Positions 18,497 to 49,244 of a stretch of 64,000 bases of DNA are shown here, piece by piece. Positions within the stretch are counted from its first letter, which is position 1, and each line of letters begins with the position of its first letter. The notes below the pieces were generated by a model that had not been told where the DNA came from, made no database searches, and saw only the letters and a list, made by a program, of their open reading frames with translations. This DNA is from an uncultured Candidatus Bathyarchaeia archaeon (GTDB lineage: Archaea > Thermoproteota > CALKCG01 > B24 > DRYS01), in the NCBI GenBank assembly GCA_964491605.1, contig CAZBGY010000001.1, forward strand, positions 23,694-87,693, in the 5' to 3' direction. The translations under genes were made by a program, and so were the position numbers.

Positions 18497-19123
18497 CTAG
18501 ATTTCTATAGACTCACCTATGGATAGCACTTTAACCCTGTAACCTCTAGCCTCAGCTTTTCTTCTAAACGATTCTGGATCCGCTTTTATCTCTGGGAATG
18601 TATTGAAGTGCATAGGTATCGTAAGCTTAGGTTTAATCCTATCTAGAGCTTCGACGGCTTCATCAACATTCATAGTGTACGTTCCACCTATAGGTATCAA
18701 AGCTAAATCCACCTCTACGCTTAACGGTTTTACAGCATCTAGATACGTATCACCGAGGTGGAGCAGCCTCACGCTACCATACTCTACTAGGTACGCTATA
18801 GGATATCTACTCTGAGGATGGCTAGCATTCAAAGCAGTAACTTTCACACCGTTTAGATCCATAACCTCACCGGATCGAATAACCCTAACACCAGGATAGC
18901 TAACCGATGGAGGCCCGACTATAATCTTAGGCTTAACCTTAGAGAGGAAATCCGTATCTGCATGATCGAAATGCTCATGTGTGAGAAGTACTATATCTGG
19001 TCTACCTTCATACTTAGGTGCAAGCCTATTACCTTTGAAGTATGGATCTATTAGTACGGTCTTTCCGTTAGAAATCTCGAAGCATGCATGACTAAGCCAC
19101 CTAACACGCATAACCCTTAACAC
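18497..19123 (-). CDS. metallo-beta-lactamase-fold metal-dependent hydrolase (UPF0173-like)
   Basis: 208 aa with the HxHxDH motif (LTHEHFDHAD) and a downstream His ligand. Confidence 0.75.
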   Translation of the reverse strand: MLRVMRVRWLSHACFEISNGKTVLIDPYFKGNRLAPKYEGRPDIVLLTHEHFDHADTDFLSKVKPKIIVGPPSVSYPGVRVIRSGEVMDLNGVKVTALNASHPQSRYPIAYLVEYGSVRLLHLGDTYLDAVKPLSVEVDLALIPIGGTYTMNVDEAVEALDRIKPKLTIPMHFNTFPEIKADPESFRRKAEARGYRVKVLSIGESIEI

Positions 19124-19192
19124 CCTAGATATAGCTGCTACAATCTACGTTAAATATTTATCTTGATCTCTCGAGTAGTAGATCCTAGGAGA

Positions 19193-19267
19193 GGGGCCGT
19201 AGTCCAGCTAGGTCAGGATACGCGGCTTGGGCCCGCGTGGTCGCCGGTTCAAATCCGGCCGGCCCCA
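19193..19267 (+). tRNA. tRNA-Pro (anticodon TGG)
   Basis: Cloverleaf readable by eye: acceptor GGGGCCG/CGGCCCC; anticodon stem CGCGG/CCGCG; loop CTTGGGC; T-arm GCCGG-TTCAAAT-CCGGC; discriminator A. CCA is not encoded. Confidence 0.85.
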
Positions 19268-19347
19268 TATATCGATCGTATCCCCCTGTTAGCTACCGGT
19301 ATATCATCGAGATATCGTAATCTTAGTTTATATAGTACCGATTACCC

Positions 19348-20094
19348 ATGTTTTACTATGGATTGAAAGCTATAGAAGTATCAGATTTAGTGAAGATTTA
19401 CGATGATGGTACGGTAGCTTTAGATGGTTTAACGTTCACGGTTGAACCTGGTGAGATCTACGGTTTAATAGGTCCTAATGGAGCTGGTAAGACTACCACC
19501 CTAAGGATAATAGCTACTCTGCTTAAGCCTACCTCCGGTCTTGTTAAAGTTTTAGGATTTGATGTAGTAGACCAAGCCGAGGAGGTTAGACGTATCATAA
19601 GCTATCTACCGGAGGAAGCTGGCGTGTACGGTAACCTTACAGGCTACGAGTATCTAAGCTTCGTAGCAAGCTTATACGCTAGAAACGAGGATGAAGCTAA
19701 GGCTATGATCGATGAAGCTCTCGAGGTATCCGGTTTAGGCTCTAGGATTAGGGATAGGGTTAAAAGCTATAGTAAGGGTATGCTTCGTAGACTTCAAGTT
19801 GCTAGGACCCTGATGGTTAAACCTAAGCTGGCTATCCTCGATGAACCTACAAGCGGTTTAGATGTGTATCATGCACACTATGTAAGGAGATGTATACGGA
19901 GGTATGTCGATGAATACGGGTTAACCGTACTTATCTCAAGTCACAATATGCTTGAGATAGAATATCTATGCGATCGCGTACTACTCATACATAAGGGTAG
20001 AGGTGTGGATGAAGATTCACCTAGATCGTTGAAGGATAGATATGCGTCCAGCAATATGGAGGAGGTCTTCCTTAAAGCGGTTGGGTTGATATGA
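19348..20094 (+). CDS. ABC transporter ATP-binding protein
   Basis: Walker A GPNGAGKTT, signature YSKGMLRRL, Walker B LAILDEPTSGLD. Confidence 0.85.
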   Translation: MFYYGLKAIEVSDLVKIYDDGTVALDGLTFTVEPGEIYGLIGPNGAGKTTTLRIIATLLKPTSGLVKVLGFDVVDQAEEVRRIISYLPEEAGVYGNLTGYEYLSFVASLYARNEDEAKAMIDEALEVSGLGSRIRDRVKSYSKGMLRRLQVARTLMVKPKLAILDEPTSGLDVYHAHYVRRCIRRYVDEYGLTVLISSHNMLEIEYLCDRVLLIHKGRGVDEDSPRSLKDRYASSNMEEVFLKAVGLI

Positions 20095-21404
20095 ATCCTC
20101 TTAAAGCCCTTGTGGTTAAGGAGTTCAAAGACTTGTTGAGGGAGCCTCAAATTCTTCTAGGTATAATACTAGCTCCCATACTGATGCTAGGTATAATGGG
20201 CGTTATCCTCTCAACAGCCTTCTCATCCGTTAGGGAGGCTGCAGCCGGGAGGGTATCCTTAGCCGTATTAGATCTAGATAAAAGTGTATATTCATCAGTT
20301 CTCATCGATATGTTGAGATTTACGAATGCATCGATCTACACCGTAGATTCTAGGAGTATAGATGAAGCAATAGTCGAAGCTGCGTCGAGGAATCTAAAGC
20401 TTCTCTTAGTTATACCCAGCGGATTCAGCGAGAATATAACTTTAGGCGTTAAAGCTAGGCTTCAAGTATACTCTGCTATCGAAGGCTTCTCTCTATCATC
20501 AACGATACCGTCGTCAGCTATCCAAGCATACATCGTAAGCTACGAGCATATACTAGTATACGATCTACTACGGAGGATAGCACCTAGCATCGACCCGAGT
20601 TTCGTATTGGATCCTATAAGCTTAGATGAATATACTGTTCTACGCGGGTCTATCATAAAGATTCCACCGGCAGCGGTATTTCAGAGGCTCTTCGGTCAAA
20701 GCCTTATGCTTCCATTCTCGATGTTCATGGTGGTGGTGGTAGCTATGCAGATAGCAGCCACTAGCATGGCTAAGGAGAAGGAGGGTAAGACGCTAGAGGT
20801 TCTACTCACATTACCTGTTAAACGTATATACATCCTCATGGGTAAGCTTGCGGGATCGATACTGATAGCTATCATAGGTTCGATCTCGTATCTCTCTGGC
20901 TTCGCTATATACATAGGCTCCTTCTCACTTATCCCTGTAGAAGAGCTGGTAGGGTTGGATTTACCAATGGAATCTATCAAGATAATGGAGATACCGCTCC
21001 AAGGCTACATAATTATGGGTATTCTACTAGTCTTATCGCTTATAGCGTTCCTCTCGATAGCTATAGGCTTATCAGCTCTAGCAGATGATGTTCGAAGTGC
21101 TCAAAGCCTCCTAGGTTTAGTATTCATACCTTTAGTAATACCCTTTATGTTTTCGATTTTCGCCGATATAAATTCCCTCCCAATCGCCTTAAGGATTATG
21201 GTATACGCTATACCGTTATCCTACCCTATACTATCTATAAACTCGATAATATCCGGGGATTACCTTACGCCATCGTTAGGTATAGCGTACCTATCGATCT
21301 TCACTATCGTTATCTTGTATATATTTGCGTGGTTCTTCGGAAGTGAGAAGATACTTACAGCCAAAATTAGGTTTATGAGGAAACCTAAAGTTAGCGATAT
21401 TTAG
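20091..21404 (+). CDS. ABC-2 family transporter permease
   Basis: 437-aa polytopic membrane protein, start overlapping the ATPase stop (ATGA). It has an N-terminal TM, a large extracytoplasmic loop, then a 5-6 TM bundle. Confidence 0.7.
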   Translation: MNPLKALVVKEFKDLLREPQILLGIILAPILMLGIMGVILSTAFSSVREAAAGRVSLAVLDLDKSVYSSVLIDMLRFTNASIYTVDSRSIDEAIVEAASRNLKLLLVIPSGFSENITLGVKARLQVYSAIEGFSLSSTIPSSAIQAYIVSYEHILVYDLLRRIAPSIDPSFVLDPISLDEYTVLRGSIIKIPPAAVFQRLFGQSLMLPFSMFMVVVVAMQIAATSMAKEKEGKTLEVLLTLPVKRIYILMGKLAGSILIAIIGSISYLSGFAIYIGSFSLIPVEELVGLDLPMESIKIMEIPLQGYIIMGILLVLSLIAFLSIAIGLSALADDVRSAQSLLGLVFIPLVIPFMFSIFADINSLPIALRIMVYAIPLSYPILSINSIISGDYLTPSLGIAYLSIFTIVILYIFAWFFGSEKILTAKIRFMRKPKVSDI

Positions 21405-21439
21405 AGGAGACTCGAAAGCTTCGATAAAGCTCCTCTAGG

Positions 21440-22228
21440 TTGAATCCTGGCATGGCTTCGGCTTTCGTAAACCCTAGATTCGAAGATATCGTAGAGCTAT
21501 TCAGGAGAAGTCTAGCTGAAGGTATGGTTATGATCCTAGTTGGTGAGTGCAGCGTAGAATATAAGGGTAGGGGTGTTGCAAGCCTAGAATCCGGTTCGCG
21601 TATAGTTATAACTAAACCAGACGGCTCCCTGCTCATACATGCAGCGACTAGCGTAGAACCTGTAAACTGGCAGCCTCCAGGATCGAAGCTGGAGGTCCGC
21701 ATCGAAGACGATAATCTAGTCCTATCATCTACTAGGAAAGCACCCTACGAGAATGTAACAGCCCGCTTCATATCCATATCACTAGTAGCGGTATGTAAGC
21801 TTGAAATCAAACCTAGATTCAAAGTCGAGATAGGCGAGGAAGCTATACGGGAAGCGGTATTAGCCGAGCCAAGCCTAATAGAGGATGGATTCAAACCTAT
21901 ATCTATAGAGAAACCGGTGGAGGCTGGGTTCATAGATCTATACGGTCTAGATAGGGATGGTAGATTGGTGGTAGTAGAGCTTAAAAGAGTGAAAGCCGAT
22001 GTAGAAGCCGTAGAACAGCTTAAAACCTATATGGACTCGCTTACCGATAGTTACGGATCGGTAAGAGGCATACTAGCCGCTCCATCGATAACCTATAAAG
22101 CATATATGAAGCTGAAGGAGTTCGGGCTAGAATACAGGAAGATCGATATAGCTAAATGCATATCGATCCTAACATCGAGAAGAAGGCAGCAGAGAAAGCT
22201 GGGGGAATACTACGGAGATAAAAGTTAA
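21440..22228 (+). CDS. nucS: endonuclease NucS (EndoMS, mismatch-specific RecB-like nuclease)
   Basis: 262 aa; N-terminal NucS DNA-binding-domain pattern and C-terminal RecB-family nuclease motifs (IDLYGLD...VVVELK). Confidence 0.7.
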   Translation: MNPGMASAFVNPRFEDIVELFRRSLAEGMVMILVGECSVEYKGRGVASLESGSRIVITKPDGSLLIHAATSVEPVNWQPPGSKLEVRIEDDNLVLSSTRKAPYENVTARFISISLVAVCKLEIKPRFKVEIGEEAIREAVLAEPSLIEDGFKPISIEKPVEAGFIDLYGLDRDGRLVVVELKRVKADVEAVEQLKTYMDSLTDSYGSVRGILAAPSITYKAYMKLKEFGLEYRKIDIAKCISILTSRRRQQRKLGEYYGDKS

Positions 22229-22261
22229 AATTATCGGAGAGTAAGTAAATCTGTGAAGGAA

Positions 22262-22339
22262 GGACCCGTAGCGCAGTCAGGATAGCGCGGCAGCCTCCTA
22301 AGCTGTCGGTCGTGGGTTCGAATCCCACCGGGTCCGCCA
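22262..22339 (+). tRNA. tRNA-Arg (anticodon CCT), CCA encoded
   Basis: Acceptor GGACCCG/CGGGTCC; anticodon stem GCAGC/GCTGT; loop CTCCTAA; T-arm GTGGG-TTCGAAT-CCCAC; discriminator G followed by genomic CCA. Confidence 0.85.
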
Positions 22340-22520
22340 TTAAACCCGGAGGAAAAGTTGAGTAAAACTAATCCCTCTCGGAGAAGAGAGTTCTAGGATC
22401 GTTCTCTTCTACTAGAAATTTAAGGGTAGCTTATTTACACTTAGTCCATTGTTTTAAGGATTACGTATACGTATCCAGATTATGGATGGAACTTAAACCA
22501 TTACATGGTTTCGGCAGAGC

Positions 22521-23552
22521 TTAAGCTAGTTTCTCCCCGCAGTTTAGGCAGAATTTAGCTTCGGATGGTATATCGCTTCCGCATTTAGGGCATTTCCTAG
22601 TAGGTTGTTGCTGTAATGAGCTTCCGCAATTTATACAGAATTTAGCTCCCGCTGGGTTTGTCGTACCACATTTGGGGCATACCTGTCCAGGCTGCATAGG
22701 TGATCCACAGTTCATACAGAATCTAGCTGTCTGCGGATTCTGGTATCCGCATTTAGGGCATTGTATCATAGGCTGAGTTTGAGGTTGAGGCTGCTGGAAT
22801 AGTGGGGGTATTATAGCTATTCCTGCTCCGACAGCTGCACCTGGGCTTTGGGATAAACTTTCAGCTGCCTTCTGAACTGTCTGCATCCTTAAGACTTCAT
22901 CCGCCGATACACCTGTTCTTAGGAAGAATATTCTATCCCTCCATTCCGGAGTCGTATCTATACCTTCAAATTTAACGTCTATAAGCTCTAACCCTATCCT
23001 TCTGAACGGCTCGTATAATATATTTCTAGCTAGAAGGCTTGTTTCATCGAGTTTCCCGTAGACTTCTACTAGCGAGTATTGACTTAAATTATCGATGAGC
23101 CTCTCGTTGAAGTATCCTCTAAGGAATTCTTGAAGCCTATCCGTCGTGTACGCATTTTGCCCTCCGATAACCTCGTTAACAAATAGGTTAGGCTCCTCCA
23201 CTCTGAACCAGAAGCTTCCATAGAATTTAAGCGGTGCAAGCTCTTTAGTCTGACCCTGCGCTCCGAATCTACCTTGAAACTGCTTCAAAGATATAAATAT
23301 AACTGTAGCTCTGAACGGGACTCTATCAAAGCCGGCTACCCTCGATAGTATACCCGTGAGTAGCGGTAGATTCGCTGTCGTAAGTACATGCCTCCCAGCT
23401 CTGAATACATCATAAGCCTTCCCATCCCTGAAGAAGACTGCAGCCTCATATTCGTGGACGATAAGGTTATCACCCCAGGTTATCTCCTCGCTCGGATACC
23501 TCCAAACTATATCCCCCTCTCTAGCTCCGATCCATTCGATAACCTTCGGCAT
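22521..23552 (-). CDS. SPFH/Band-7 (PF13421-like) domain protein with three C-terminal zinc-ribbon repeats
   Basis: N-terminal VIEW..DIVWRYP...FRDGKA.DVF.AGRHVL pattern typical of the SPFH Band_7_1 family. The C-terminus carries 3x CPKCG-x10-FC(M/I/L)NCG double-Cys-pair repeats in a Q/P-rich linker. Confidence 0.6.
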   Translation of the reverse strand: MPKVIEWIGAREGDIVWRYPSEEITWGDNLIVHEYEAAVFFRDGKAYDVFRAGRHVLTTANLPLLTGILSRVAGFDRVPFRATVIFISLKQFQGRFGAQGQTKELAPLKFYGSFWFRVEEPNLFVNEVIGGQNAYTTDRLQEFLRGYFNERLIDNLSQYSLVEVYGKLDETSLLARNILYEPFRRIGLELIDVKFEGIDTTPEWRDRIFFLRTGVSADEVLRMQTVQKAAESLSQSPGAAVGAGIAIIPPLFQQPQPQTQPMIQCPKCGYQNPQTARFCMNCGSPMQPGQVCPKCGTTNPAGAKFCINCGSSLQQQPTRKCPKCGSDIPSEAKFCLNCGEKLA

Positions 23553-24089
23553 TTATCCTACCACCCCTCTCAATACATCTATTCTCCTATCGATAAGGGA
23601 ATCGAGTTCATCTATCTTAGATATCAAGCCGTCTATAATCCTTCTCCACTCATCGCTCCCAGGCTCTGATGCCGTTAAGGATCTTACATCAGATTTAATC
23701 GATTCAGCTTTCTCGATCAACCCTAGATCGTATTCGATTATAGATTCAATCTTATCCTCCTTAACCTTCACGGCGTCAAACAAGCCTGCATAGCCTGCTA
23801 CAGCCCTATCTATACGCTGAGTAACCCTATCGAGACGATATGATAGTGTATCTATCCTCCAAGAATCTTCACCCGAAATCTTCCTAGCTACGGCTGGGTT
23901 TGATAAGCTCCTCCTCAAAATATTCTTAGCATCCCTCAACCTAGCCGCAACCTCCATCCTAACAAGCCTATCGCTCTCCCTCCTAACCTCCTTCTCCTTA
24001 TACCCTCGATAACCTGGTATGTAGCTGAGGATCCTCTCTGTAAGGCTTATCTCTCTCTTCACTTTATCGATACGTTCCTCTACGCTCAC
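23553..24089 (-). CDS. coiled-coil protein, translationally coupled to flanking genes
   Basis: Highly charged, heptad-rich sequence (RIDxxxxRI repeats). The probable start is GTG 24089-24087, overlapping the upstream TGA (GTGA). The stop abuts the ATG of the SPFH gene. The track ORF extends to 24221 only through overlap with the upstream gene. Confidence 0.45.
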   Translation of the reverse strand: MSVEERIDKVKREISLTERILSYIPGYRGYKEKEVRRESDRLVRMEVAARLRDAKNILRRSLSNPAVARKISGEDSWRIDTLSYRLDRVTQRIDRAVAGYAGLFDAVKVKEDKIESIIEYDLGLIEKAESIKSDVRSLTASEPGSDEWRRIIDGLISKIDELDSLIDRRIDVLRGVVG

Positions 24090-24433
24090 CTCATCCTCCC
24101 CCAGTAAGCTGAGAATCCTATAAGGACTAGTACCACCAGTAGTATGCCTACGATCGTCAGCGGATGTACCAACGGGTATGTAACCGAGGATAAAGCTAAA
24201 GCTACCATAACCAAACCCCAATATAGATAGAATAACCGATCCCTCTTAAACCATAACGCATAGAGGACCGTATATACGCCTAGAGGACCTAAAACCCAGA
24301 ATACGATATCTACCATATCGAACGCTAAAACGCCTACGCTATAAACGGTAAAAGCTACCCCTATCGAAGATACAATAACCGCGAGAGCTCCGACGGCGTA
24401 TTCAAACTTTCTAAACCTATGGTTACCGCTCAT
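24086..24433 (-). CDS. small polytopic membrane protein (3-4 TM helices)
   Basis: 115 aa, almost entirely hydrophobic helices; first gene of the 3-gene minus-strand unit. Confidence 0.5.
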   Translation of the reverse strand: MSGNHRFRKFEYAVGALAVIVSSIGVAFTVYSVGVLAFDMVDIVFWVLGPLGVYTVLYALWFKRDRLFYLYWGLVMVALALSSVTYPLVHPLTIVGILLVVLVLIGFSAYWGRMR

Positions 24434-24512
24434 ACAGCTAATAGGTAAACATATTGAGTATATAAGATTATTTGTAATCTTTAAATCCCTAACAAGTATA
24501 GTATAGGGGCGA

Positions 24513-25130
24513 GTGGTAAGATTGCCGATCCTAGGTGGAATCGCGAAGAAGCTTACACCGCCTAAGATCAGGTTAACCCTGAAACTCGGTAAGGACTACT
24601 ATGCGCTTGGAGAGAATCTAGAAGGTGAGCTACAGTTATCCTCCGACGAAGAAGTTGACGTCGAAGAGATTAGATGCGAGCTCACATGCGTCGAAGCCGT
24701 TAAAACTGTACGGTATGTAGAAGCTAGAGTTGGAAGATCAGGGTCTCCAGTTATGGTTCCCACCGAAACCTGGCAATCCGCTACCCTCTACTCAACTAAG
24801 ATCGTGTTAAGCGGCCCTACACATATCAGTAAAGGCTTTACGGATAGTTACCGATTCAAGGTAAGCATACCTATAACATTGAAGCCGACATATAAGGGAG
24901 TTGATAGGAGGGTTACATGGACGATTAAAGGTGTAGCCGCTGTTGAAAATAGACCTGACGCTACGAGTAATACCGTAGAACTTCAGATAATCCAACCAGC
25001 CGCTCCGCCAGTGGTTAAAGAGAAGGAGATAGTGCGCGAGATAGTCGTAGCTCCATGCAAATACTGCGGAACACTATTCCCGGTTACAGAGACTACATGT
25101 CCCAACTGCGGTGCTAAGAGAACAGGTTAA
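24513..25130 (+). CDS. Spo0M-like / arrestin-N-like beta-sandwich protein with C-terminal zinc ribbon
   Basis: Pattern Y..GE.LEGEL.L, then IRCELTCVE, FKVSIPITLKPTY and VTWTIKGV, matching the Spo0M/arrestin-N architecture. A C-terminal CKYCG...CPNCG ribbon follows. Confidence 0.45.
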   Translation: MVRLPILGGIAKKLTPPKIRLTLKLGKDYYALGENLEGELQLSSDEEVDVEEIRCELTCVEAVKTVRYVEARVGRSGSPVMVPTETWQSATLYSTKIVLSGPTHISKGFTDSYRFKVSIPITLKPTYKGVDRRVTWTIKGVAAVENRPDATSNTVELQIIQPAAPPVVKEKEIVREIVVAPCKYCGTLFPVTETTCPNCGAKRTG

Positions 25131-25379
25131 ACGGTCGTAACGTGAAGCGTAGGGATACCCCTCCAATTTTCTCCAAGAACTGAGTAACCCCAGCTTAAAT
25201 CCCGCTCATAAACTGGGAATCATCTAAATGGCATATTTAGACCTAGGGATACTTAAGAAATCTAAGAAAAATGCTGGTAGCTTAAAAGAGGCTTATTTGA
25301 AGCTTCTTTTCAGCATCGGCGAATAGAAAGGTCCCAGAAATAGAAGAAGAGTGATTTCAGATTGATTATTTAGAAGGTA

Positions 25380-25465
25380 CGCCGGGGGCGGGATTTGAAC
25401 CCGCGCGGCGCATATGCGCCACAGGCTTAGCAGGCCTGCACCCTACCAGGCTAGGTGACCCCGGC
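25380..25465 (-). tRNA. tRNA-Ser (anticodon GCT), long variable arm
   Basis: On the minus strand: acceptor GCCGGGG/CCCCGGC; anticodon stem CAGGC/GCCTG; loop CTGCTAA; variable arm GGCGC-ATAT-GCGCC; T-arm GCGGG-TTCAAAT-CCCGC; discriminator G. Confidence 0.85.
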
Positions 25466-25632
25466 TTTCTATACTCAATACTATCGAAGGCTTACTTTCG
25501 TATAAAAGGTTTAATGCAGGCGGGGATTTCATGGAGCATGGTATCTTCGATTTCACCTACCAATATCTAGTGGTTCTTATCTGAGGGGCATCTGTTTATT
25601 AGTTTTTCTTCTAGTGTATGCTGTGAAATGTT

Positions 25633-25646
25633 AAACTTTAAATTTT
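25633..25646 (+). promoter_or_regulatory. putative archaeal BRE/TATA element (AAACTTTAAATTTT) upstream of the transglutaminase-like gene
   Basis: A-rich BRE-like run followed by the TTTAAAT TATA-like box, 25-35 nt upstream of the GTG/ATG start region. Confidence 0.3.
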
Positions 25647-25669
25647 ATGTAGTGTTTTCTATGTTTTAG

Positions 25670-26866
25670 GTGTGGGCGTTGATCATGGGTAAAAGTACTA
25701 TCGCTGTTTCCATTATAGCCGTTATCTTATCTATTTCATCGATCATGCTATACAATAGGGTTTCTGTTTTAGAGGGTATGTATGAAGCTAAGTCTATGGA
25801 GTGTGATGAGCTTAGATTTGCATACGCATCGATCCTATCCGAATATGAGTCTATGATTTCGGATTATCTTAAATTGAAATCGAATCACACGATGTTATCC
25901 GATCTCTATGAGAAGCTCCTCTCAGATTATCAAAACCTCTTATACGATTATCGGAATCTATCTTCAGATTACCTAGAGCTTACGAAGACTCTCGTCTCGC
26001 TTAATATGAGTTATAGGATCCTATACGATGAGTACAACGTTACTAGAAATAATCTTTCCCGTCTTCTCGATGATTACGAGGGGTTGAAGCATATGTATAG
26101 CGATCTATTCCGCGATTATACTTCGCTGCTTGAGGAATATAGCATTTTAAGAACGAGTTACGAATCTCTAAAAGCTAGATTATCAACCGGAGTTTTCGAA
26201 TCATTTGTTAGAGATTATTTAAAGCTTATAGATGAGGTTAACATACATGCTATCCATCCCAAGAGGGAGGATTTACTTCTCATAACACCTTATGATGATA
26301 GGGTTAGGAGCCTCATGCTACAGGTTACCGGTGGATGGAGCGGCTACTTCGATCTAAATGAAATATCTATGGAGGTGAAATCACTATTCGATTGGGTTAA
26401 AGGTAATGTGAGGTATAGGAGTGATGGTCTCTATCCACTACTTCCCTCTGATCCGAGCTTCCCACCGATATACATCTCAGATATGTGGCAGTATCCTAAT
26501 CAGACGTTAACTGTTAGGGAGGGTGATTGCGATGATCAAGCAATCCTGTTAGCTAGTATGCTTTCAGCTTATTTCCAAGGAAGGATTAGGGTTGAATGTA
26601 TAATCGTCACCGATCATATGGCCGTCTATACACCTTTCGAGGGTGGGAGGATAATGATACTTGATCCGGCCACAGGGTATTATACTGGTAGTCCTGGTAT
26701 GCCTAGCTTCGCCGATGTAAGGATGGAGGTTTACCGTTGGATAAGTAGGCTTGAAGATATGTTCGGTAAGAGAATCGATGTCAAATGGGTATTCTCTGAT
26801 AGGATCTTGAAGTTATTCTATAATACTGAAAGCTTCATCGAATGGATATACGAAACGACACGGTAA
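25670..26866 (+). CDS. membrane-anchored transglutaminase-like cysteine protease-fold protein with N-terminal LxxDYxx heptad array
   Basis: N-terminal TM helix. About 14 consecutive heptads follow (LSDLYEK/LLSDYQN/LLYDYRN/LSSDYLE...). The C-terminal TGase core has Cys (EGDCDDQAILLAS), His (VTDHMAVY) and Asp (ILDP). Confidence 0.6.
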   Translation: MWALIMGKSTIAVSIIAVILSISSIMLYNRVSVLEGMYEAKSMECDELRFAYASILSEYESMISDYLKLKSNHTMLSDLYEKLLSDYQNLLYDYRNLSSDYLELTKTLVSLNMSYRILYDEYNVTRNNLSRLLDDYEGLKHMYSDLFRDYTSLLEEYSILRTSYESLKARLSTGVFESFVRDYLKLIDEVNIHAIHPKREDLLLITPYDDRVRSLMLQVTGGWSGYFDLNEISMEVKSLFDWVKGNVRYRSDGLYPLLPSDPSFPPIYISDMWQYPNQTLTVREGDCDDQAILLASMLSAYFQGRIRVECIIVTDHMAVYTPFEGGRIMILDPATGYYTGSPGMPSFADVRMEVYRWISRLEDMFGKRIDVKWVFSDRILKLFYNTESFIEWIYETTR

Positions 26867-26969
26867 AGTTTATAAGCTATAGTTTAGCCACTATCCTTGG
26901 CAAAGTTATGTCGTTTACCGTTCTCGCGGTCGTTATAGCTTAGCTCCGAGTTGGAGGAGTATCCTAGGT

Positions 26970-28226
26970 ATGGCTAGCATAAAGTCTTATTCGCTCGAGA
27001 ACTATCGGTTTAGGAAGCTTCTAGAAGAGCTTAAATCTAAGGTCGGTAGAGGTACCGAGCTTATAAGCCTCTACGTACCTCCAGGTAGACCTATACATGA
27101 GGTTATAAATGGTTTATGGCAAGAGTATAATACAGCTTCTAATATAAAGTCTGATAGGACTAGGAAGAATGTTCAATCTGCTATAGAGCGTGTGATTCAG
27201 AGGCTTAGATACTTTAAGAAGACGCCTGAGAATGGCCTTGTAGTATTCTGCGGAGCTATACCCCAGGATGGGGAGGGAAGCGAGAGGCTTGAAGACTATG
27301 TGATAATACCCCCAGAGCCTATCAATGTATCCTATTATGGATGTTCCTCCACATTCTACTTAGACCCTCTATACGAGATTATCAGGGAGAGGGAATCCTA
27401 CGGTGTCATAATCCTAGATTCGAGTGAAGCTAGCTTCGGTATAATCTCTGGTAGAAGGATAGAGCTGGTTAGAGAGATAACTTCAGGTATACCTGGCAAG
27501 CATAGAGCTGGAGGGCAATCTGCACGTAGATTCGAGAGGCTTAGAGAGATGGAGCTTAACGAATTCTTCAGGAGGGTTGCTAAGTATGCAGATGAATTAT
27601 TCCTAGATAGGAGTGATATCAAAGGTATACTCGTAGCAGGGCCTGGACCTACTAAATACGAATTCCTAGATAAGGATTACCTCAACTACATGTTGAAGCA
27701 GAAGGTGGTAGGAGTAATAGATACGGCGTACACCGGTGAGGAAGGTCTACGCGAGGTAGCGAGTAAATCTGTGGATATACTTAGAGGCGTAAGACATATG
27801 GATGAGAAGAGGATCGTGCAGAGATTCTTTAAGGAAGCTACGTTGGGTGGTGGGCTTGCAGCTTACGGGGAGGATGAAGTTAGATCTCTCATGGAACGCG
27901 GGATGGTGGAGACTCTCATAATATCTGAAGGCGTAGATAGGATGAGGGTTACCGTCGAATGCGGTGTCTGCAGTTATACGGATAGACGTACAGTTAGGGC
28001 GGTAGATCTATTCGCTTTCGAAGCTGAGCTTTCCAGATCCAAATGCCCGTCATGCGGTAATCAATCCTTAAAGATTAAGGAGAAGAAGAATCTCATAGAT
28101 GATTTTATAGAGTTAGCTGAGCGATACAATGTTAACGTAGAATTGATATCTACAGAAACAGAAGAGGGAGAGATGTTCCTTAAAGGTTTCGGTGGTATTG
28201 CCGCTCTACTAAGGTATAAGGTTTAG
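26970..28226 (+). CDS. prf1: peptide chain release factor aRF1
   Basis: NIKS codon-recognition motif (TASNIKSDRTRKN), GGQ motif (KHRAGGQSARRF), 418 aa; CxxC-x27-CxxC insert in domain 3. Confidence 0.9.
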   Translation: MASIKSYSLENYRFRKLLEELKSKVGRGTELISLYVPPGRPIHEVINGLWQEYNTASNIKSDRTRKNVQSAIERVIQRLRYFKKTPENGLVVFCGAIPQDGEGSERLEDYVIIPPEPINVSYYGCSSTFYLDPLYEIIRERESYGVIILDSSEASFGIISGRRIELVREITSGIPGKHRAGGQSARRFERLREMELNEFFRRVAKYADELFLDRSDIKGILVAGPGPTKYEFLDKDYLNYMLKQKVVGVIDTAYTGEEGLREVASKSVDILRGVRHMDEKRIVQRFFKEATLGGGLAAYGEDEVRSLMERGMVETLIISEGVDRMRVTVECGVCSYTDRRTVRAVDLFAFEAELSRSKCPSCGNQSLKIKEKKNLIDDFIELAERYNVNVELISTETEEGEMFLKGFGGIAALLRYKV

Positions 28227-29044
28227 GATCTGAATCTAGGATTAATTCTTCTACGCAGCCTCTCTATGAACCCTTCCTTCACTCTCACGAAATCTACTGA
28301 TTTATCCGATCCTCTCACCCTCACGCTGAATCCTTCTGGAAGCTTCACCGAAGATATCCCGTCCACCGATACATATAGATCCCCTCTAATAGATCTAAGC
28401 TCCACCGTGGAATACCATGGTGCTACATACGGTTTGAAGCCTGGCGTTAACGGTGATACAGGAGTTAGTATGAATGCCTCCACCCTAGGATCCAGTATGC
28501 ATCCTCCACAGCTTAGAGAATATCCTGTAGAACCTAGCGGTGTAGCTACAAGTATAGCATCTACTCTATCTAAAGCTATAACCTCCCCCTCCACCCTTAC
28601 CTCTAGATCTACAGTCTTTAAAACATCCGTTGCTCCAACCCTAACCTCGTTTAAGGCGTATGGCAGACCGACGTTGTTCTCTAGGAGCTTATAGGATTCC
28701 ATCCTATACCTACCCTCTAATAGCATATCCACCGCTTCTAAAGCTTCATGTAGATCGCAATCCGCTAGGAATCCTACTAGTCCAGCTCTGATAGCGAATA
28801 TAGGTTTAGATAAGCCTGTACTATGTAAGGCTCTTAGGATTGTTCCATCCCCTCCTACCGCTACTAGCAGATCGAATACACACCCCGGATGCCATCTAGT
28901 ACCTCCGATCCTTTCGTATAGTTTATCCTCTACTAGGACGTTCACCCCCCTATCTTCAAGAATCTCCTTAATCTTAGATGATACGGTTAAGGCATCATCT
29001 AGATCTATGCGTGAGAATAATGCTATGGATTCTATCTTAAGCAA
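28223..29044 (-). CDS. ppnK: NAD(+) kinase
   Basis: GGDGTILRA motif, NE/D motif, 273 aa. Confidence 0.85.
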   Translation of the reverse strand: MLKIESIALFSRIDLDDALTVSSKIKEILEDRGVNVLVEDKLYERIGGTRWHPGCVFDLLVAVGGDGTILRALHSTGLSKPIFAIRAGLVGFLADCDLHEALEAVDMLLEGRYRMESYKLLENNVGLPYALNEVRVGATDVLKTVDLEVRVEGEVIALDRVDAILVATPLGSTGYSLSCGGCILDPRVEAFILTPVSPLTPGFKPYVAPWYSTVELRSIRGDLYVSVDGISSVKLPEGFSVRVRGSDKSVDFVRVKEGFIERLRRRINPRFRS

Positions 29045-29089
29045 GATTCATCATGAAAACTTTAGGGATTCTAAAGGGGATATTAATAT

Positions 29090-30163
29090 TTATAGTGCTT
29101 CAACTATACGCTTCCAATCTACATTCTCCCTAAACAGTTTATACGCTATATCCACCCTTCTCTTATCACCCGGTTTAATCCTACCCACGAGTTCTCCTAC
29201 AAGCTCCACGGTAGTGTAGGTATCGTACGGGACCAATATGACAGGGACACCTTTCTCTTCAGCCCTAGCTAATACCCTTACATCCGGATATAGGTTACCC
29301 GTCAATATCAGCACTGATGTATCAGTCTCTAATGCTGCGAGAGCTATATCGGCTCTATCACCCCCAGTTATAACAGCTTTATTTACCGCCCTCCTAAAGA
29401 ATGAGAGAGCGGATTCAAGGGTCATAGCTCCTATCATAATCTCTTCTACGATACCGTCTAGTTTATCTTCGTGAACTAGTATCTCCCCGCCTATACGTTC
29501 ATATATATCTGCCACCGTAGGTGCTACTAGCTCGGCTCTCCTAGGTATAACTCCCAAGACATCTATCCCGTGCGATCTTAGTATCGACGACGCTATACCC
29601 CTCGCTCTCTCGATCACATATCTCCGAACATAGTTCAATACGACGCCGATCGTTTGCAATCCTTCAAGCTTCATATGCTCATGCATCTGTAGGATGCATC
29701 CTACATCTACATCAGACTCAAATAAGGATATTATCACAGCTTTACATCCAAGCACCTCCGCTATGAACCTGTAAGTCAATCCTGTAAGATAATTGAAGCC
29801 TGTATTCCTAGGAGCTTCCACTATAATTATATCTTTCCCGTCAGAGAGTTTGCGGTAGGCCTCATTTATCCTAAGGCATACATCTTGAAGTTTACCTTTA
29901 GCTATATCTTCTAGAACTCTATCGCTAGCTACATAGGGTGTGATATCCTCTAAACTATCTTCTAAGCTTAGAACATCCTTCATAAGGATGGAATCTTCAT
30001 CCATATACTCACCCTTAGATAGACTGGTTCTCAAACCTATCGGCTTCATATAGCCTATCTTATACCCTTCATTCCTCAAAGTGTATGCTAACCCTACGCA
30101 GAACGCTGTTTTCCCCGAGTAATCCCTCGGAGAGACTACGTAGAGCCCTTTACATCTAGACAT
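29090..30163 (-). CDS. DRTGG-domain protein (Pta N-terminal-domain-like, CobQ/MinD-type P-loop plus DRTGG)
   Basis: N-terminal P-loop-like SPRDYSGKTAFCVGLA and C-terminal VITGGDRADIALAALE (DRTGG); directly downstream of ADP-forming acetyl-CoA synthetase. Confidence 0.55.
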   Translation of the reverse strand: MSRCKGLYVVSPRDYSGKTAFCVGLAYTLRNEGYKIGYMKPIGLRTSLSKGEYMDEDSILMKDVLSLEDSLEDITPYVASDRVLEDIAKGKLQDVCLRINEAYRKLSDGKDIIIVEAPRNTGFNYLTGLTYRFIAEVLGCKAVIISLFESDVDVGCILQMHEHMKLEGLQTIGVVLNYVRRYVIERARGIASSILRSHGIDVLGVIPRRAELVAPTVADIYERIGGEILVHEDKLDGIVEEIMIGAMTLESALSFFRRAVNKAVITGGDRADIALAALETDTSVLILTGNLYPDVRVLARAEEKGVPVILVPYDTYTTVELVGELVGRIKPGDKRRVDIAYKLFRENVDWKRIVEAL

Positions 30164-38734: not shown

Positions 38735-39391
38735 TTACACCTGGTGGCTGTGGGGGGTTGGCGGAAGCCTTAATGATATGTAGAAGTATACTGCTGAAGC
38801 GGTGAATACAGAGTTTAAAAGCCAGCTTATTATCGGCCCGATGTATGATCCGATGATCGGGATTAACGAGAAGCCATACGAGAAGATTGCACCTACAATT
38901 ATCACTACTAGGATGAATACCACTACGTCTCCAAGATTCTTGATAACGAAATCGAATGCTTTTTTCGTGCTTTCGATAGCGTTCAACCCCTCTATTATCG
39001 CGATAACAACTATGAATATCGCTATGGGGAGTAGTATGACTGTTATACTGCATAATGCTGCGATTACAGCTGCGGTAATTAATGTGCCGATCCTGCTCAT
39101 TACCCGATCTAAACTTCTCCCTAGATCTATCGGGCGGTTGTTAGCTGCATCGTTAACCATATCTACGAGCATGCATCCCGCTATGAAGCCTAAAATCGCG
39201 GCGATCAATGAGCCGAAGAGGCTTATGAACGGATTCGGTGCTTCGAAGTAGTAGTATCGTATCGGGAATAGGTATGCTAGCGTATTGAAGATTAATTGTA
39301 TGATGATGGGGATAGCGTAAGGAGCGAATAATACCGGATTCTTTACCGAAACATCTACACCCCTAAGAATCGCCTCTATCGATTTAGACAT
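38735..39391 (-). CDS. hypothetical polytopic membrane protein
   Basis: 218 aa with about 5 hydrophobic helices separated by short charged loops. Preferred over the antisense 149-aa ORF. Confidence 0.4.
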   Translation of the reverse strand: MSKSIEAILRGVDVSVKNPVLFAPYAIPIIIQLIFNTLAYLFPIRYYYFEAPNPFISLFGSLIAAILGFIAGCMLVDMVNDAANNRPIDLGRSLDRVMSRIGTLITAAVIAALCSITVILLPIAIFIVVIAIIEGLNAIESTKKAFDFVIKNLGDVVVFILVVIIVGAIFSYGFSLIPIIGSYIGPIISWLLNSVFTASAVYFYISLRLPPTPHSHQV

Positions 39392-46050: not shown

Positions 46051-47946
46051 TTGGCAGCCTCCTTCATACGCGAAGTAGTATTGGAGAATTTTATGAGCTA
46101 CGAGTATGCTAGAGTTAAGCTTGCACCTGGTTTAAACCTTATATGTGGACCGAACGGCTCCGGAAAGTCATCGATACTTCTAGGTATATCCGTAGCTCTA
46201 GGTCAAACTTACACGGAGAGGGCGAGGAGGCTCAGTGATCTTATAAGATGGGGTCGCGATATAGCGCGTGTAACTTTAATTTTCGATAATAGCGGTGAAG
46301 GGGAAGGTAAGCTTTTTCCTTCTATTAGATCCTCCACCGTATCTATCTCAAGGATACTCAGGAGGGATGGGACTTATAGCTTCTACGTGTTAGGTGAGGA
46401 GAAGCCTAAACTAGAGGTTATAGAGTTTCTAAGCAAGGTGGGTTTAGATCCAGATAATCCGTTTATAATAATGCATCAAGGTACGATAGAAGAATTTGTA
46501 GCGATACATCCAGAGGAGAAGCTTAAGCTTCTAGAGAAGGCTGTAGGTTTCGAAGATTATCGAAGAAATATACTGGAGGCTAGAAGTAGGCTCTCGAAGG
46601 TTCTATCAGAGGAGAAGATTATCCGCGAGAGAATAGCTGATGCTGAATCTACGCTAGAATACTGGCGTAGAGAATACGAGAAGCTTATACAGTATAGACG
46701 GCTTAGAAGGAAGGAGGATGAGCTTAAGCTAGAGTTTTCATGGGCTAGGATACTAGATCTCGAGGATAAGCTAGCTAAACTATCCAGTAAGGTTGAACTC
46801 TATAGTCGGAGGATATCGAAGCTTGAGAAGATATGTTATGATGCTAAGTCTAAGATCGCGGATGTAGAGAAGGATTTCGAGAGTTTGATCTTTGATGAGG
46901 ATAGGTTATTTGAGAAAATCATAGCATCAGAGAAGCTTCTATCAATGCTATCTGAAGATTTACGTATACTCAAATCGTATGGAGGTAGGCTGCCGGCTGA
47001 ATTTGAAGCTGAGGTTAGGGGTAAAGTTTCGGATCCAAAAAGAATCGAATCTGATCTAAGAGATATGTATAGAGCCTACAGCGGGTTAAGGGTTAGAGAA
47101 CGTGAGATATTCAAACGGTATGCGGAGTTATGCGTCGAGGAGGCGTTAGCTTCATCTGAGATAACTAGGCTTATAGATGAGAGGAAGCGTATGGAGGCTA
47201 AGATATCCGATTTGAAATCTAAGATTGAATCCATGTTATCGGAGGTAGGTAGCTCATCATCTAAACCTCCTACCGTTAGAAGTTTACCGGAGATAGAGAA
47301 TGAGTTGAGAAGCGTAGAGGCTAGGATTAGAGCTCTAGGATCCGTCTCAGAAGATGTAGCATCTATATACGAGAAATATAGGAGCGTCTACGATGAACTG
47401 AAATCCAGGCTTGAAATAGTCTCAGAGAATAAGAATCTACTCCTACGAGAACTAGATGAAAGGGTTAAGATTTGGAGGGAAGCATTGGAGAAATTACTGG
47501 ATAGTGTGAATAAGGAGTTTCAGAGTATACTTGAAGAGTTTGGCTATGTAGGATACGCTAAACTGTCTAATCCATATGATATCGATAGGAGTGGACTCGA
47601 GATATACATGGGGACGCCTGGTTTGGATCCAGTACCCCTCAATAATCTTACTCAAAGCGGTGGTGAGAGGAGTCTAGCTGTATCCACATTCCTTATAGCT
47701 CTTCAGCAGTATGTGAAAAGCCCGTTTAGAGCTTTAGACGAGTATGATGTACATATGGATCCGGTGAATAGGGAGGCGATCTTTAAGCATATAGTAGAAC
47801 GTCTATCCGGTAAGGAGAAGATCCAGTACGTAGTTATAACGCCGAATCCACTACCAGTAGCAGCTAGAGTAGCTAATGTTATAGTAGTTCAGAAGGTGGG
47901 AGGTAGATCTAAGGTTGGGAGGATCGAAGCCTGCATCGAAGCGTAG
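46051..47946 (+). CDS. short SMC-like ATPase (ABC-type head domains flanking ~300 aa coiled coil)
   Basis: N-terminal Walker A GPNGSGKSS. C-terminal signature LTQSGGERSLAVSTF plus Walker B/D-loop ALDEYDVHMD. The central heptad-rich region has no CxxC hook and no canonical hinge. 631 aa. Confidence 0.7.
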   Translation: MAASFIREVVLENFMSYEYARVKLAPGLNLICGPNGSGKSSILLGISVALGQTYTERARRLSDLIRWGRDIARVTLIFDNSGEGEGKLFPSIRSSTVSISRILRRDGTYSFYVLGEEKPKLEVIEFLSKVGLDPDNPFIIMHQGTIEEFVAIHPEEKLKLLEKAVGFEDYRRNILEARSRLSKVLSEEKIIRERIADAESTLEYWRREYEKLIQYRRLRRKEDELKLEFSWARILDLEDKLAKLSSKVELYSRRISKLEKICYDAKSKIADVEKDFESLIFDEDRLFEKIIASEKLLSMLSEDLRILKSYGGRLPAEFEAEVRGKVSDPKRIESDLRDMYRAYSGLRVREREIFKRYAELCVEEALASSEITRLIDERKRMEAKISDLKSKIESMLSEVGSSSSKPPTVRSLPEIENELRSVEARIRALGSVSEDVASIYEKYRSVYDELKSRLEIVSENKNLLLRELDERVKIWREALEKLLDSVNKEFQSILEEFGYVGYAKLSNPYDIDRSGLEIYMGTPGLDPVPLNNLTQSGGERSLAVSTFLIALQQYVKSPFRALDEYDVHMDPVNREAIFKHIVERLSGKEKIQYVVITPNPLPVAARVANVIVVQKVGGRSKVGRIEACIEA

Positions 47947-48694
47947 GGTAGCGACTGTGAAAAGGGAGGTTGAGAAGCTTATAGCACAGTGTAGACTTAC
48001 GGTTAAACGTGGAGCTGATCCATTCCAAGTGGATGTGAAGGGTTCTCTAGCTACGCTTAGAAACTTCATCGAATTAGCTTCTAGCTTAGATGATATACGT
48101 CTAGATGGCGAAGCCTTATACAATCTATCTACGATAGTCGAATCCCAGGATAGATGGATCAAGTTTAGATCTAGTAAGCTTTTCGTGGATCCTATGTTCA
48201 TAGAATCTAGGGTTAAAACTGCTTCCAGTAGGATGTTGGCACGCATACTCGTATCGTGCTGGACACCTACAGCATCCATCGATACGTTAACTCCTTCGAT
48301 GCTTGATTTAGCAATAAGCTACTGGAATAGGTTAAAGCCTCTTAAAGGTAGATGGGGTAGGCTTTCAGGAAGCTCCACGGAGTATCTAACTCTCTCTTTC
48401 GACGAAGCTTCTAAACTGGGTTTAATCTACGATAAGGGGTTCGAGGAGCTTCTATCAAGTATCGAGGATTATGTTAAACGCCTTCTATCAATTAAAGATA
48501 AGGTTGAGTATAGTGAGGTAGTCAGGGGAAGCTGGGTTGAAATGGTTACTAAAGCTTACCTAATAAGTTTCCTAGTATCATCTGGGCGTCTAGGTCTGGT
48601 ATACGATCCGTCCACCGATAGATTCTATATCACATCGTATAGCAGATCCGATATGCCTAGATCTATCGCCATATCTGTAGGGGTGGGTGGATAA
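47915..48694 (+). CDS. kleisin-like (ScpA-like) candidate partner of the SMC-like ATPase
   Basis: 259 aa; overlaps the SMC-like gene by 32 nt and the downstream gene by 8 nt. Helical N-terminal region with a loose ScpA-like pattern (FQVDVKGSLATLRNFIELASSLDDIRL). Assignment is by context and weak similarity only. Confidence 0.35.
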   Translation: MGGSKPASKRRVATVKREVEKLIAQCRLTVKRGADPFQVDVKGSLATLRNFIELASSLDDIRLDGEALYNLSTIVESQDRWIKFRSSKLFVDPMFIESRVKTASSRMLARILVSCWTPTASIDTLTPSMLDLAISYWNRLKPLKGRWGRLSGSSTEYLTLSFDEASKLGLIYDKGFEELLSSIEDYVKRLLSIKDKVEYSEVVRGSWVEMVTKAYLISFLVSSGRLGLVYDPSTDRFYITSYSRSDMPRSIAISVGVGG

Positions 48695-49244
48695 CGGTAT
48701 GGGGTCTAAGAGGGATTTGGAAGAGAGAGCTAGAAGAGCTTTACAGTTGCTATTAGTGCAGAGGCATAGAAAGCCTGGTGTGAAAGGGTGGGAGCTTAGA
48801 CGATCCATAGGTAAAAACTACCTTAATATTCTTGAATACCTGAACGAGAAGCTGGACTCCTACGGTTTATGCATTAGGATGGTGTACGAAGGTGAAGAAA
48901 CAACCCCTGACCAAGCTAGATTCCTCGTTACCGTGAAGGATAGTATAAGGATGAGTGAAGCTATATCTGCAGGTTGGCGTATAGATGAGCTTGCAATACT
49001 CGCAGCTTCTATAGCGTATATAGCTTCAAGGCAGGGATCCATAAGTTCTAGGGAGCTTCTCCGTCTACTCGAAGTTAAGTTTCCAAGCTGGTTTATAGAA
49101 GCTACCTTGAGGCGGCTTATAAGATATGGATACCTTGAACGTGATGGGGATATCGTAAAGATAGGATGGAGGAGTAAAGCTGAGATCGATGGAGGCAAGC
49201 TTCTTGAACTCATAGTTAAAATGGATGTTGTAAGCGAGAGTTGA
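48687..49244 (+). CDS. ScpB/MukE-like tandem winged-helix (kite-like) protein
   Basis: 185 aa with two wHTH-like halves (…GWELRRSIGKNYLNILEYLNEKLDSYGL… and …SISSRELLRLLEVKFPSWFIEATLRRLIRYGYLE…); terminal gene of the tight 3-gene operon. Confidence 0.45.
   Translation: MDNGMGSKRDLEERARRALQLLLVQRHRKPGVKGWELRRSIGKNYLNILEYLNEKLDSYGLCIRMVYEGEETTPDQARFLVTVKDSIRMSEAISAGWRIDELAILAASIAYIASRQGSISSRELLRLLEVKFPSWFIEATLRRLIRYGYLERDGDIVKIGWRSKAEIDGGKLLELIVKMDVVSES

Follow-up and report, generated by a model that had tools for sequence, protein, structure and literature searches.

A conserved operon for a membrane protein, a helical protein and an SPFH protein, with a divergent arrestin-like gene, in a Bathyarchaeia genome

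The DNA analysed here, referred to as the window, is a stretch of 64,000 nt from an uncultured Candidatus Bathyarchaeia archaeon (contig CAZBGY010000001.1 of assembly GCA_964491605.1, positions 23,694 to 87,693 of the forward strand). In this window, four protein genes are bracketed by a tRNA-Arg(CCT) and a tRNA-Ser(GCT) gene. Three of them are on the minus strand and encode a small integral membrane protein (TM), a helical protein (CC) and an SPFH-domain protein with zinc ribbons (SPFH), while the fourth, on the plus strand, encodes an arrestin-like protein (ARR). The interval holds a vertically inherited and strongly constrained operon, with the gene order TM, CC, SPFH and the divergent ARR gene beside it. 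An earlier note on the same DNA, with tRNA genes in mind as classic sites of integration, had read the genes as an accessory islet fixed in the chromosome. Conservation over 79 loci, purifying selection, ordinary base composition and the lack of mobility genes among the genes from 19.3 to 29 kb speak instead for a conserved core operon, to which a probability of about 0.9 is given.

Conservation of the operon

One genome per GTDB species was scanned, and 184 species have a relative of CC. The best 80 were fetched and 79 were analysed; these loci are labelled Bathyarchaeia, Nitrososphaeria (including Ca. Terraquivivens) or Nezhaarchaeota. For the locus of the window itself, exact copies come from metagenome contigs only, and its nearest named relatives are metagenome-assembled genomes labelled Bathyarchaeia. 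CC is present in 79 of the 79 loci, flanked by the SPFH gene in 74 and by the TM gene, which lies directly upstream, in 76. The members that are missing are explained by contig ends, and the TM-CC-SPFH operon is therefore a feature of all 79 loci.

The three genes are not conserved to the same degree. Compared with the window, protein identity is 68-93% for SPFH, 54-81% for CC and 31-70% for TM; the SPFH range is taken from 76 of 80 loci, contig ends having truncated the others. As recent horizontal spread would have left all three alike, this gradient within the operon indicates an old divergence under differing constraint. A recent transfer between hot-spring lineages was considered as the source of the high SPFH identity and rejected, given that TM is only 31-50% identical in most other loci. 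The conservation of SPFH is also far above that of neighbouring genes that are comparable across the same loci (28-41% and 54-69% identity). Against the two nearest species, the ratio of nonsynonymous to synonymous substitution rates (dN/dS) is 0.06-0.08 for SPFH and 0.14-0.19 for CC, TM and ARR, and all four genes are under purifying selection.

In addition to these three genes, most loci carry a fourth component that depends on the lineage. ARR has this place in 14 loci, where its gene is either divergent and upstream, as in the window, or downstream of the SPFH gene and usually convergent. In 40 loci, there are instead one to three zinc-ribbon proteins (of approximately 250 and 410 aa), encoded upstream of TM and/or between CC and SPFH. 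A 231-aa protein, p231, takes the upstream slot in 14 loci, two of which also have a zinc-ribbon protein and are counted under both types, and no fourth component is seen in 12. Clustering of the neighbours in the 79 loci shows that ARR co-occurs with neither the zinc-ribbon proteins nor p231. The module consists, in effect, of a constant three-gene core and a lineage-variable fourth component whose variants are mutually exclusive. The zinc-ribbon proteins and p231 of the sister lineages belong to no Pfam or NCBIfam family.

Position between two tRNA genes

The tRNA genes on both borders are what first suggests an islet, that is, four genes acquired horizontally by integration beside a tRNA gene and fixed later. 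It also fits this explanation that the flanking genes are not kept around the module in other species and that the four proteins lack a housekeeping annotation. Nevertheless, no integrase, recombinase or transposase is present in the list of open reading frames (ORFs) or in Pfam and NCBIfam scans of every gene between 19.3 and 29 kb. Similarly, a repeat search of positions 19000-29500 finds no direct repeat derived from a tRNA, including its 3′ end, the sole tRNA-related repeat being a generic T-arm similarity between tRNA-Pro and tRNA-Ser. The GC content is flat over the interval (0.435-0.468, with 0.44 for the window), third-position GC is 0.43-0.46 in its genes (mean 0.41, standard deviation 0.03) and the codon usage of the three large genes is at z = -1.8 to +1.5 relative to the spread of the window's 57 genes. 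The earlier note had likewise seen neither an integrase nor a tRNA 3′-end repeat nor a compositional break, and the codon-usage and GC comparison that it proposed finds the interval ordinary, which lends an islet no support. Among 72,556 plasmid records nothing matches CC, and the matches to SPFH in 50,697 phage records are limited to two, both weak and partial. Furthermore, every locus of a related species that was analysed has the module; its divergence is graded, dN/dS does not exceed 0.19, and the nearest other species keep the same four genes with no tRNA, NucS or aRF1 gene nearby. Long-range synteny is also loosely retained, since genes found elsewhere in the window (an SMC-like trio and a 218-aa membrane protein, see below) lie beside the operon or ARR in other lineages. 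In view of all this, an integrated islet is very improbable.

The same gene set, in the same place in all related genomes and with ordinary codon usage, was what the earlier note expected of core genes, and a comparison of the interval between NucS and aRF1 was its suggested check. The gene set and the codon usage are indeed as expected, as the module is present in all 79 relatives, but its place is not the same, for NucS and aRF1 are not beside it in the closest species. This variable position reflects generally weak synteny and not insertion. Because the nearest other species keep the four genes without these neighbours, the tRNA bracketing is uninformative as to the origin of the module. 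Both tRNA genes are incidental neighbours that do not belong to it, and the bracketing is particular to the gene order of this species.

Proteins of the module

The features of the interval are collected in Table 1. The gene description in the earlier note was accurate on the whole and needs correction for the start and the helical architecture of CC.

Table 1. Features of the interval, with positions in the window
Feature	Positions	Strand	Basis or remark
tRNA-Arg(CCT)	22262-22339	+	ARAGORN; Rfam tRNA 68 bits; genome-encoded CCA
SPFH protein, 343 aa	22521-23552	-	Pfam Band_7_1 E=5.7e-26; Band_7 E=6e-17; Zn_Ribbon_1 x3
Three in-frame 57-nt repeats	22537-22761	-	Repeat search; encode the three SPFH zinc ribbons
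CC, helical protein, 178 aa	23553-24089	-	Gene callers and homologue alignment
TM, integral membrane protein, 115 aa	24086-24433	-	Hydropathy maximum 2.68; first gene of the operon
Divergent intergenic region, 79 bp	24434-24512	.	Two back-to-back TATA-like boxes
ARR, single-lobe arrestin/Spo0M-like beta-sandwich with C-terminal zinc ribbon, 205 aa	24513-25130	+	Pfam Arrestin_N
tRNA-Ser(GCT)	25380-25465	-	ARAGORN; Rfam 56.9 bits

The SPFH protein begins with a Band_7_1 domain (PF13421) at residues 16-203, which scores 91.9 bits, with a gathering cutoff of 24, and spans positions 1-198 of the 211 in the profile. A low-complexity linker follows, and then three C-terminal zinc ribbons of the DZR type (CPKCG...NCG), which Pfam recognizes as three Zn_Ribbon_1/DZR stretches in residues 263-342. 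The DNA repeats that encode them have a spacing of 87 and 81 nt and are 70-72% identical to the reference copy. Hydropathy reveals no transmembrane segment (maximum KD19 of 1.17), as is expected of a soluble protein. Sequence searches of the PDB give matches to the zinc ribbons only, with no solved relative of the Band_7_1 domain. The N-terminal 70 residues of SPFH are almost invariant and constitute a candidate interface region.

According to the gene callers and the alignment of homologues, CC starts at the GTG at 24089 and not at the start of the 222-aa ORF that had been listed. This GTG overlaps the stop codon of the upstream TM gene (GTGA), while the CC and SPFH genes abut without any gap. 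CC has no transmembrane segment by hydropathy and no match in Pfam. There are 796 homologues, and an alignment of 28 sequences has 42 invariant columns. An exhaustive profile search (E<=0.001) extends the family to 1290 clusters at 50% identity, with members that are nearly all of 160-220 aa, a few of which have, at the N-terminus, a zinc ribbon of the type seen on SPFH. Two loops are near-invariant in the family: one after the first helix, with the motif [IVL]PG[YF]xGY..KE.RR..D..R, and one in the middle of the protein, GY[AST]G.FD..K.xE..LD. These two glycine/tyrosine loops are further candidates for interface regions. The earlier note had called CC a coiled-coil protein. Instead, the AlphaFold2 model (mean predicted local distance difference test score, pLDDT, 81; predicted template modelling score, pTM, 0.79) has six helices, none of them longer than 30 residues, and CC is probably a compact helical bundle. 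By sequence, nothing in the PDB matches CC below E=0.38.

A model for a bacterial branch of this family already exists, as NCBIfam NF047596 ('LIMLP_15305 family protein', from Leptospira, 175 positions) aligns with CC end to end. The match covers residues 47-216 of the long ORF (E=3e-15) and, with 56 bits, is far below the cutoff of 210; CC thus belongs to the same family but falls outside that equivalog. No function is annotated for the model, and the LIMLP_15305 tag was found in one paper only, where a table lists it among genes next to a small RNA (PMC7567364). In full-text searches, Band_7_1 or PF13421 are mentioned incidentally only, and neither the CC family nor its pairing with Band_7_1 was found described, which does not prove that no description exists. 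Judging from the sequences, the CC family appears to be a conserved partner family of YdjI-type SPFH proteins. It lacks a Pfam model and, to judge from the literature that could be searched, had not been described.

The pairing is also seen far from the archaeal loci. In four distant contigs (L087, L091, L092 and L093), a CC protein that is 29-30% identical to that of the window is encoded directly upstream of a Band_7_1 gene, and the protein from L092 is labelled Chloroflexi by NCBI. In L091, L092 and L093, CC is preceded by a large protein (with DUF2207 in L093 and without a Pfam match in the other two) and also by a small hydrophobic protein of 170-173 aa. As the pair recurs in four distant contigs, it is not an archaeal curiosity; a CC-Band_7_1 pair with a membrane partner is a widespread arrangement that is not confined to archaea. 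In the bacterial-type versions, the place of TM is held by the large protein, of DUF2207 type or similar and with an N-terminal hydrophobic segment, together with the 170-173-aa protein (genes at 4458-4976 in L091, 1930-2451 in L092 and 4478-4990 in L093). Besides hydrophobic segments, the latter proteins have a conserved C-terminal region that by eye resembles a winged helix. No paper was found that names DUF2207 together with SPFH. It is conceivable, though rather doubtful, that CC and Band_7_1 form an ancient, hitherto undescribed two-protein membrane system of Bacteria and Archaea, independent of PspA and with interchangeable membrane receptors and adaptors, for which a single-lobe arrestin would be one adaptor in thermophilic Thermoproteota.

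TM, which the earlier note had rightly described as a tiny polytopic membrane protein, is hydrophobic along nearly its full length, and four membrane helices are read from its sequence. It has no match in Pfam or NCBIfam. TM is the one product of the module that is integral to the membrane, the other three being soluble, and is presumed to be its anchor. In two strain-variant contigs, L005 and L006, SPFH is 100% identical and the flanking DNA 97-100%, while the TM gene and the promoter region (24100-24500) are 83-95% identical, with a synonymous divergence (dS) of 0.30 at TM and of 0.009-0.026 at the neighbouring genes. The pattern resembles a patch of recombination or an allele swap, limited to the membrane partner.

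The short region between the divergent TM and ARR genes contains, at 24452-24487, a TTTAAAT box and, on the other strand, a TTATATA box, located approximately 26-34 nt from the divergent start codons. Their core, GATTTAAAGATTACAAA..TTTATATAC, is kept in the three nearest species (L007-L009), where the proteins encoded are 67-93% identical. Because this back-to-back core is conserved and lies so close to the starts, the region is read as a predicted bidirectional promoter, common to the operon and ARR, from which near-leaderless transcripts would be produced. A scan for sigma-70 promoters and terminators gave a background level of matches, with a sigma-70 model that is unsuited to an archaeon.

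ARR passes the Pfam threshold for Arrestin_N (27.7 bits, cutoff 24.9), has no transmembrane segment by hydropathy and lacks any sequence match in the PDB. Its AlphaFold2 model (pLDDT 87) consists of one sandwich (residues ~19-160), a linker and a zinc ribbon, and not of two tandem lobes. The structural matches found for this model with Foldseek are the N-lobe of ARRDC3 (E=2e-9), Spo0M of B. subtilis (E=1.4e-8), the N-domain of TXNIP, and Vps26, all with a probability of 1.00 and with E-values that range from 1e-9 to 1e-6, at a sequence identity of ~15%. The Spo0M-like zinc-ribbon label that the earlier note gave to this protein is therefore borne out as to fold, with the qualification that only one lobe is present. 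Spo0M itself is poorly understood. Within the same archaeal lineages, members of the ARR family are 45-79% identical. In other genomes, some homologues are found apart from the operon, for instance one by a proton pyrophosphatase gene and one by an M48 peptidase gene.

The window also encodes a 218-aa polytopic membrane protein with a weak DUF7847 match (38735-39391, minus strand). Its homologues, which are 54-69% identical, lie near the ARR gene in four lineages (L052, L086, L022 and L039) and directly adjoin it in three. This protein may be a further, loosely linked component.

Proposed mechanism and alternatives

The best-studied framework for such a module comes from Bacillus subtilis. There, YdjI is described as a protein without a membrane anchor that has a band-7 domain, a stretch of low complexity and a zinc finger at its C-terminus (PMC8581546; PMC11237479). 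YdjG/H are needed for the membrane localisation of YdjI, and YdjI is in turn required for the formation of PspA foci under envelope stress (PMC8581546; PMC11237479; bioRxiv 10.64898/2026.02.06.704340). By analogy with YdjG/H, TM would be a membrane receptor that recruits the soluble SPFH protein and its cognate CC to the cytoplasmic face of the membrane. SPFH and CC would build a sub-membrane scaffold or microdomain complex there, which would stabilise or monitor the membrane. The exchangeable fourth protein, which is ARR here and a zinc-ribbon protein or p231 elsewhere, would serve as a lineage-specific client adaptor or input. This mechanism is given a probability of about 0.5-0.6. The physical interaction of the proteins, their recruitment to the membrane and their role as a stress-related scaffold are all inferred from gene order and the same analogy. 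The membrane-stress, remodelling or surveillance module that the earlier note had proposed is a reasonable idea in the light of the YdjI-like architecture of SPFH, its support coming by analogy.

Several observations weigh against this reading. It draws on gene order and on the likeness to a single system from bacteria, and PspA, the effector of that system, is missing from this locus. The link between SPFH and YdjI is made through Pfam Band_7_1 and a published domain description and not through a direct comparison of sequences. TM, a 115-aa protein with four transmembrane segments, is not homologous to YdjG, which has zinc ribbons and a YpeB-like domain, or to YdjH, which has a TPM domain. 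In addition, a Foldseek search of the PDB with the CC model returns generic helical bundles only (best E=0.11), with no significant structural neighbour. The window has no homologue of the zinc-ribbon proteins of other lineages, nor of p231. Finally, ARR may have an independent function, because it is unlinked to the operon in many genomes.

Other functions can be envisaged for the same genes. SPFH proteins commonly partner membrane proteases, and the module could be a scaffold for membrane-protein quality control, comparable to HflK/C-FtsH or stomatin-NfeD, in which SPFH and CC enclose or regulate a protease or client encoded elsewhere and ARR acts as the substrate adaptor. The structural matches of ARR agree with this, as proteins with an arrestin fold typically act as adaptors for membrane proteins, and in L089 and L090 an ARR homologue is encoded next to an M48 peptidase of the HtpX type. 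However, the M48 adjacency is a single context, none of the genes that recur beside the operon in the 79 loci belongs to a protease family, and the Band_7_1 protein has neither the anchor nor the long coiled-coil wall of the SPFH proteins that form cages, all of which makes this function unlikely. A role in Psp-type membrane repair, in which CC is a highly diverged remodeller of the PspA/ESCRT-III type and SPFH nucleates its polymers on damaged membrane, is a distinctly poor prospect, even though CC is all-helical, is similar in size and occupies, beside a YdjI-type gene, the operon position that pspA has in Bacillus (PMC8581546), and even though SPFH and ESCRT-III genes are repeatedly linked in archaea and bacteria (PMC11188069). 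At the sequence level, CC was rejected as a PspA: none of 44 diverse members of its family matches PspA_IM30 or Snf7 in Pfam (E<=1), and hhalign gives the CC profile a probability of 0.6% against a hand-entered sequence of E. coli PspA. The structural comparison points in the same direction: the 50 best matches that Foldseek lists from the PDB include neither an ESCRT-III chain nor a PspA chain, and the CC model has several short helices where a long helical hairpin would be expected. An anti-virus defence or abortive-infection module with a membrane-associated SPFH scaffold is hardly credible. Some defence systems do include SPFH or zinc-ribbon proteins, and the patch of elevated divergence at the TM gene of two strain-variant contigs could be taken as a sign of this kind. 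On the other hand, PADLOC yields nothing but noise (E>0.004, to coiled-coil regions), no defence genes recur as neighbours, and the universal presence and extreme conservation of the module are the opposite of what patchy, fast-evolving defence genes display. The membrane scaffold that TM would recruit thus continues to be the preferred reading.

Neighbouring genes

ARAGORN and Rfam agree on the two tRNA genes that the earlier note had named as borders, including the encoded CCA of tRNA-Arg(CCT), where the match to the Rfam model stops at 22336 and the bases right after are CCA. Rfam detects no RNA besides four tRNAs, whether with permissive E-values over 19-29 kb or with gathering scores over the whole window. 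Beyond the tRNA genes, the interval is flanked on one side by NucS and an ABC transporter and on the other by a transglutaminase-like protein, aRF1 and NAD kinase, and not by biosynthetic operons, as had been stated. Just past tRNA-Ser, on the plus strand (25670-26866), is a gene whose 398-aa product has a membrane anchor at its N-terminus, a long repeat region rich in tyrosine and leucine, and a weak transglutaminase-like core. This gene lies in the stretch with the lowest GC in the neighbourhood (0.37-0.40), and only one weak match to its product (30%, in L082) is found near the operon of other species. None of the genes between the tRNAs is as good a candidate for a variable gene.

Farther away, at 46051-49244 on the plus strand and 22 kb from the operon, the window contains a trio of genes for a short SMC_N-type ATPase (631 aa) and two unannotated proteins of 259 and 185 aa. 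In 11 species (L015, L019, L020, L031, L032, L034, L036, L040, L043, L050 and L082), homologues of this trio with 24-42% identity lie directly upstream of, and divergent from, an SPFH operon of the p231 type, with the 185-aa member present in 10 of them. Both this trio and the 218-aa membrane protein show that a loose long-range synteny persists across lineages.

Significance

As there is no island, the islet aspect of this locus is without importance. The interest of the module resides in its unusually high conservation, in its unnamed partner family and in an arrestin-fold adaptor. An SPFH protein with 68-93% identity across several classes of Thermoproteota implies an important and densely interacting role in the cell, in lineages for which no tractable cultured member is available. 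The module also offers a PspA-free counterpart for comparison with the work on bacterial PspA and YdjI, as well as a concrete genomic context for prokaryotic arrestin-fold proteins. If the ancient two-protein system considered above were real, an arrestin-type adaptor would be paired in archaea with an SPFH scaffold, and both fold classes are those of eukaryotic membrane trafficking.

Comparison with known systems

The SPFH fold (Band_7, E=6e-17), a membrane-protein partner in the operon and an expected role at the membrane are shared with stomatin/NfeD, HflK/C-FtsH and the flotillins. In contrast to the proteins of those systems, SPFH has no N-terminal anchor or hairpin, no long C-terminal coiled coil and no NfeD or protease partner, and it belongs to the separate Band_7_1 family, in which no solved relative is detectable by sequence. 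ARR resembles Spo0M and the N-lobe of alpha-arrestin-type proteins (ARRDC3, TXNIP and Vps26) in that it passes Arrestin_N and its model superposes on them, but it has a single lobe, in contrast to the two of arrestins and Vps26, and ends with a zinc ribbon.

Among the systems that have been studied, the envelope-stress operon pspA-ydjGHI (pspA-samGHI) of B. subtilis comes closest. Both systems have a soluble Band-7 protein that lacks an anchor and ends in a zinc ribbon, and its gene shares an operon with those for one or more small membrane proteins and a helical protein of effector type. CC holds the place of PspA in this arrangement and has no detectable homology to it. The zinc-ribbon proteins in the operons of many sister lineages loosely recall YdjG, a likeness that is an impression. 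Two large surveys of Psp systems treat band-7/zinc-ribbon proteins in the context of PspA only. By this analogy, the module would work like the YdjI branch of the Psp network and yet is not a Psp system, because PspA was looked for without success and the two sets of membrane partners are not related. What sets it apart from pspA-ydjGHI is, in addition, the arrestin-lobe protein attached to it, its archaeal host and a far higher sequence conservation.

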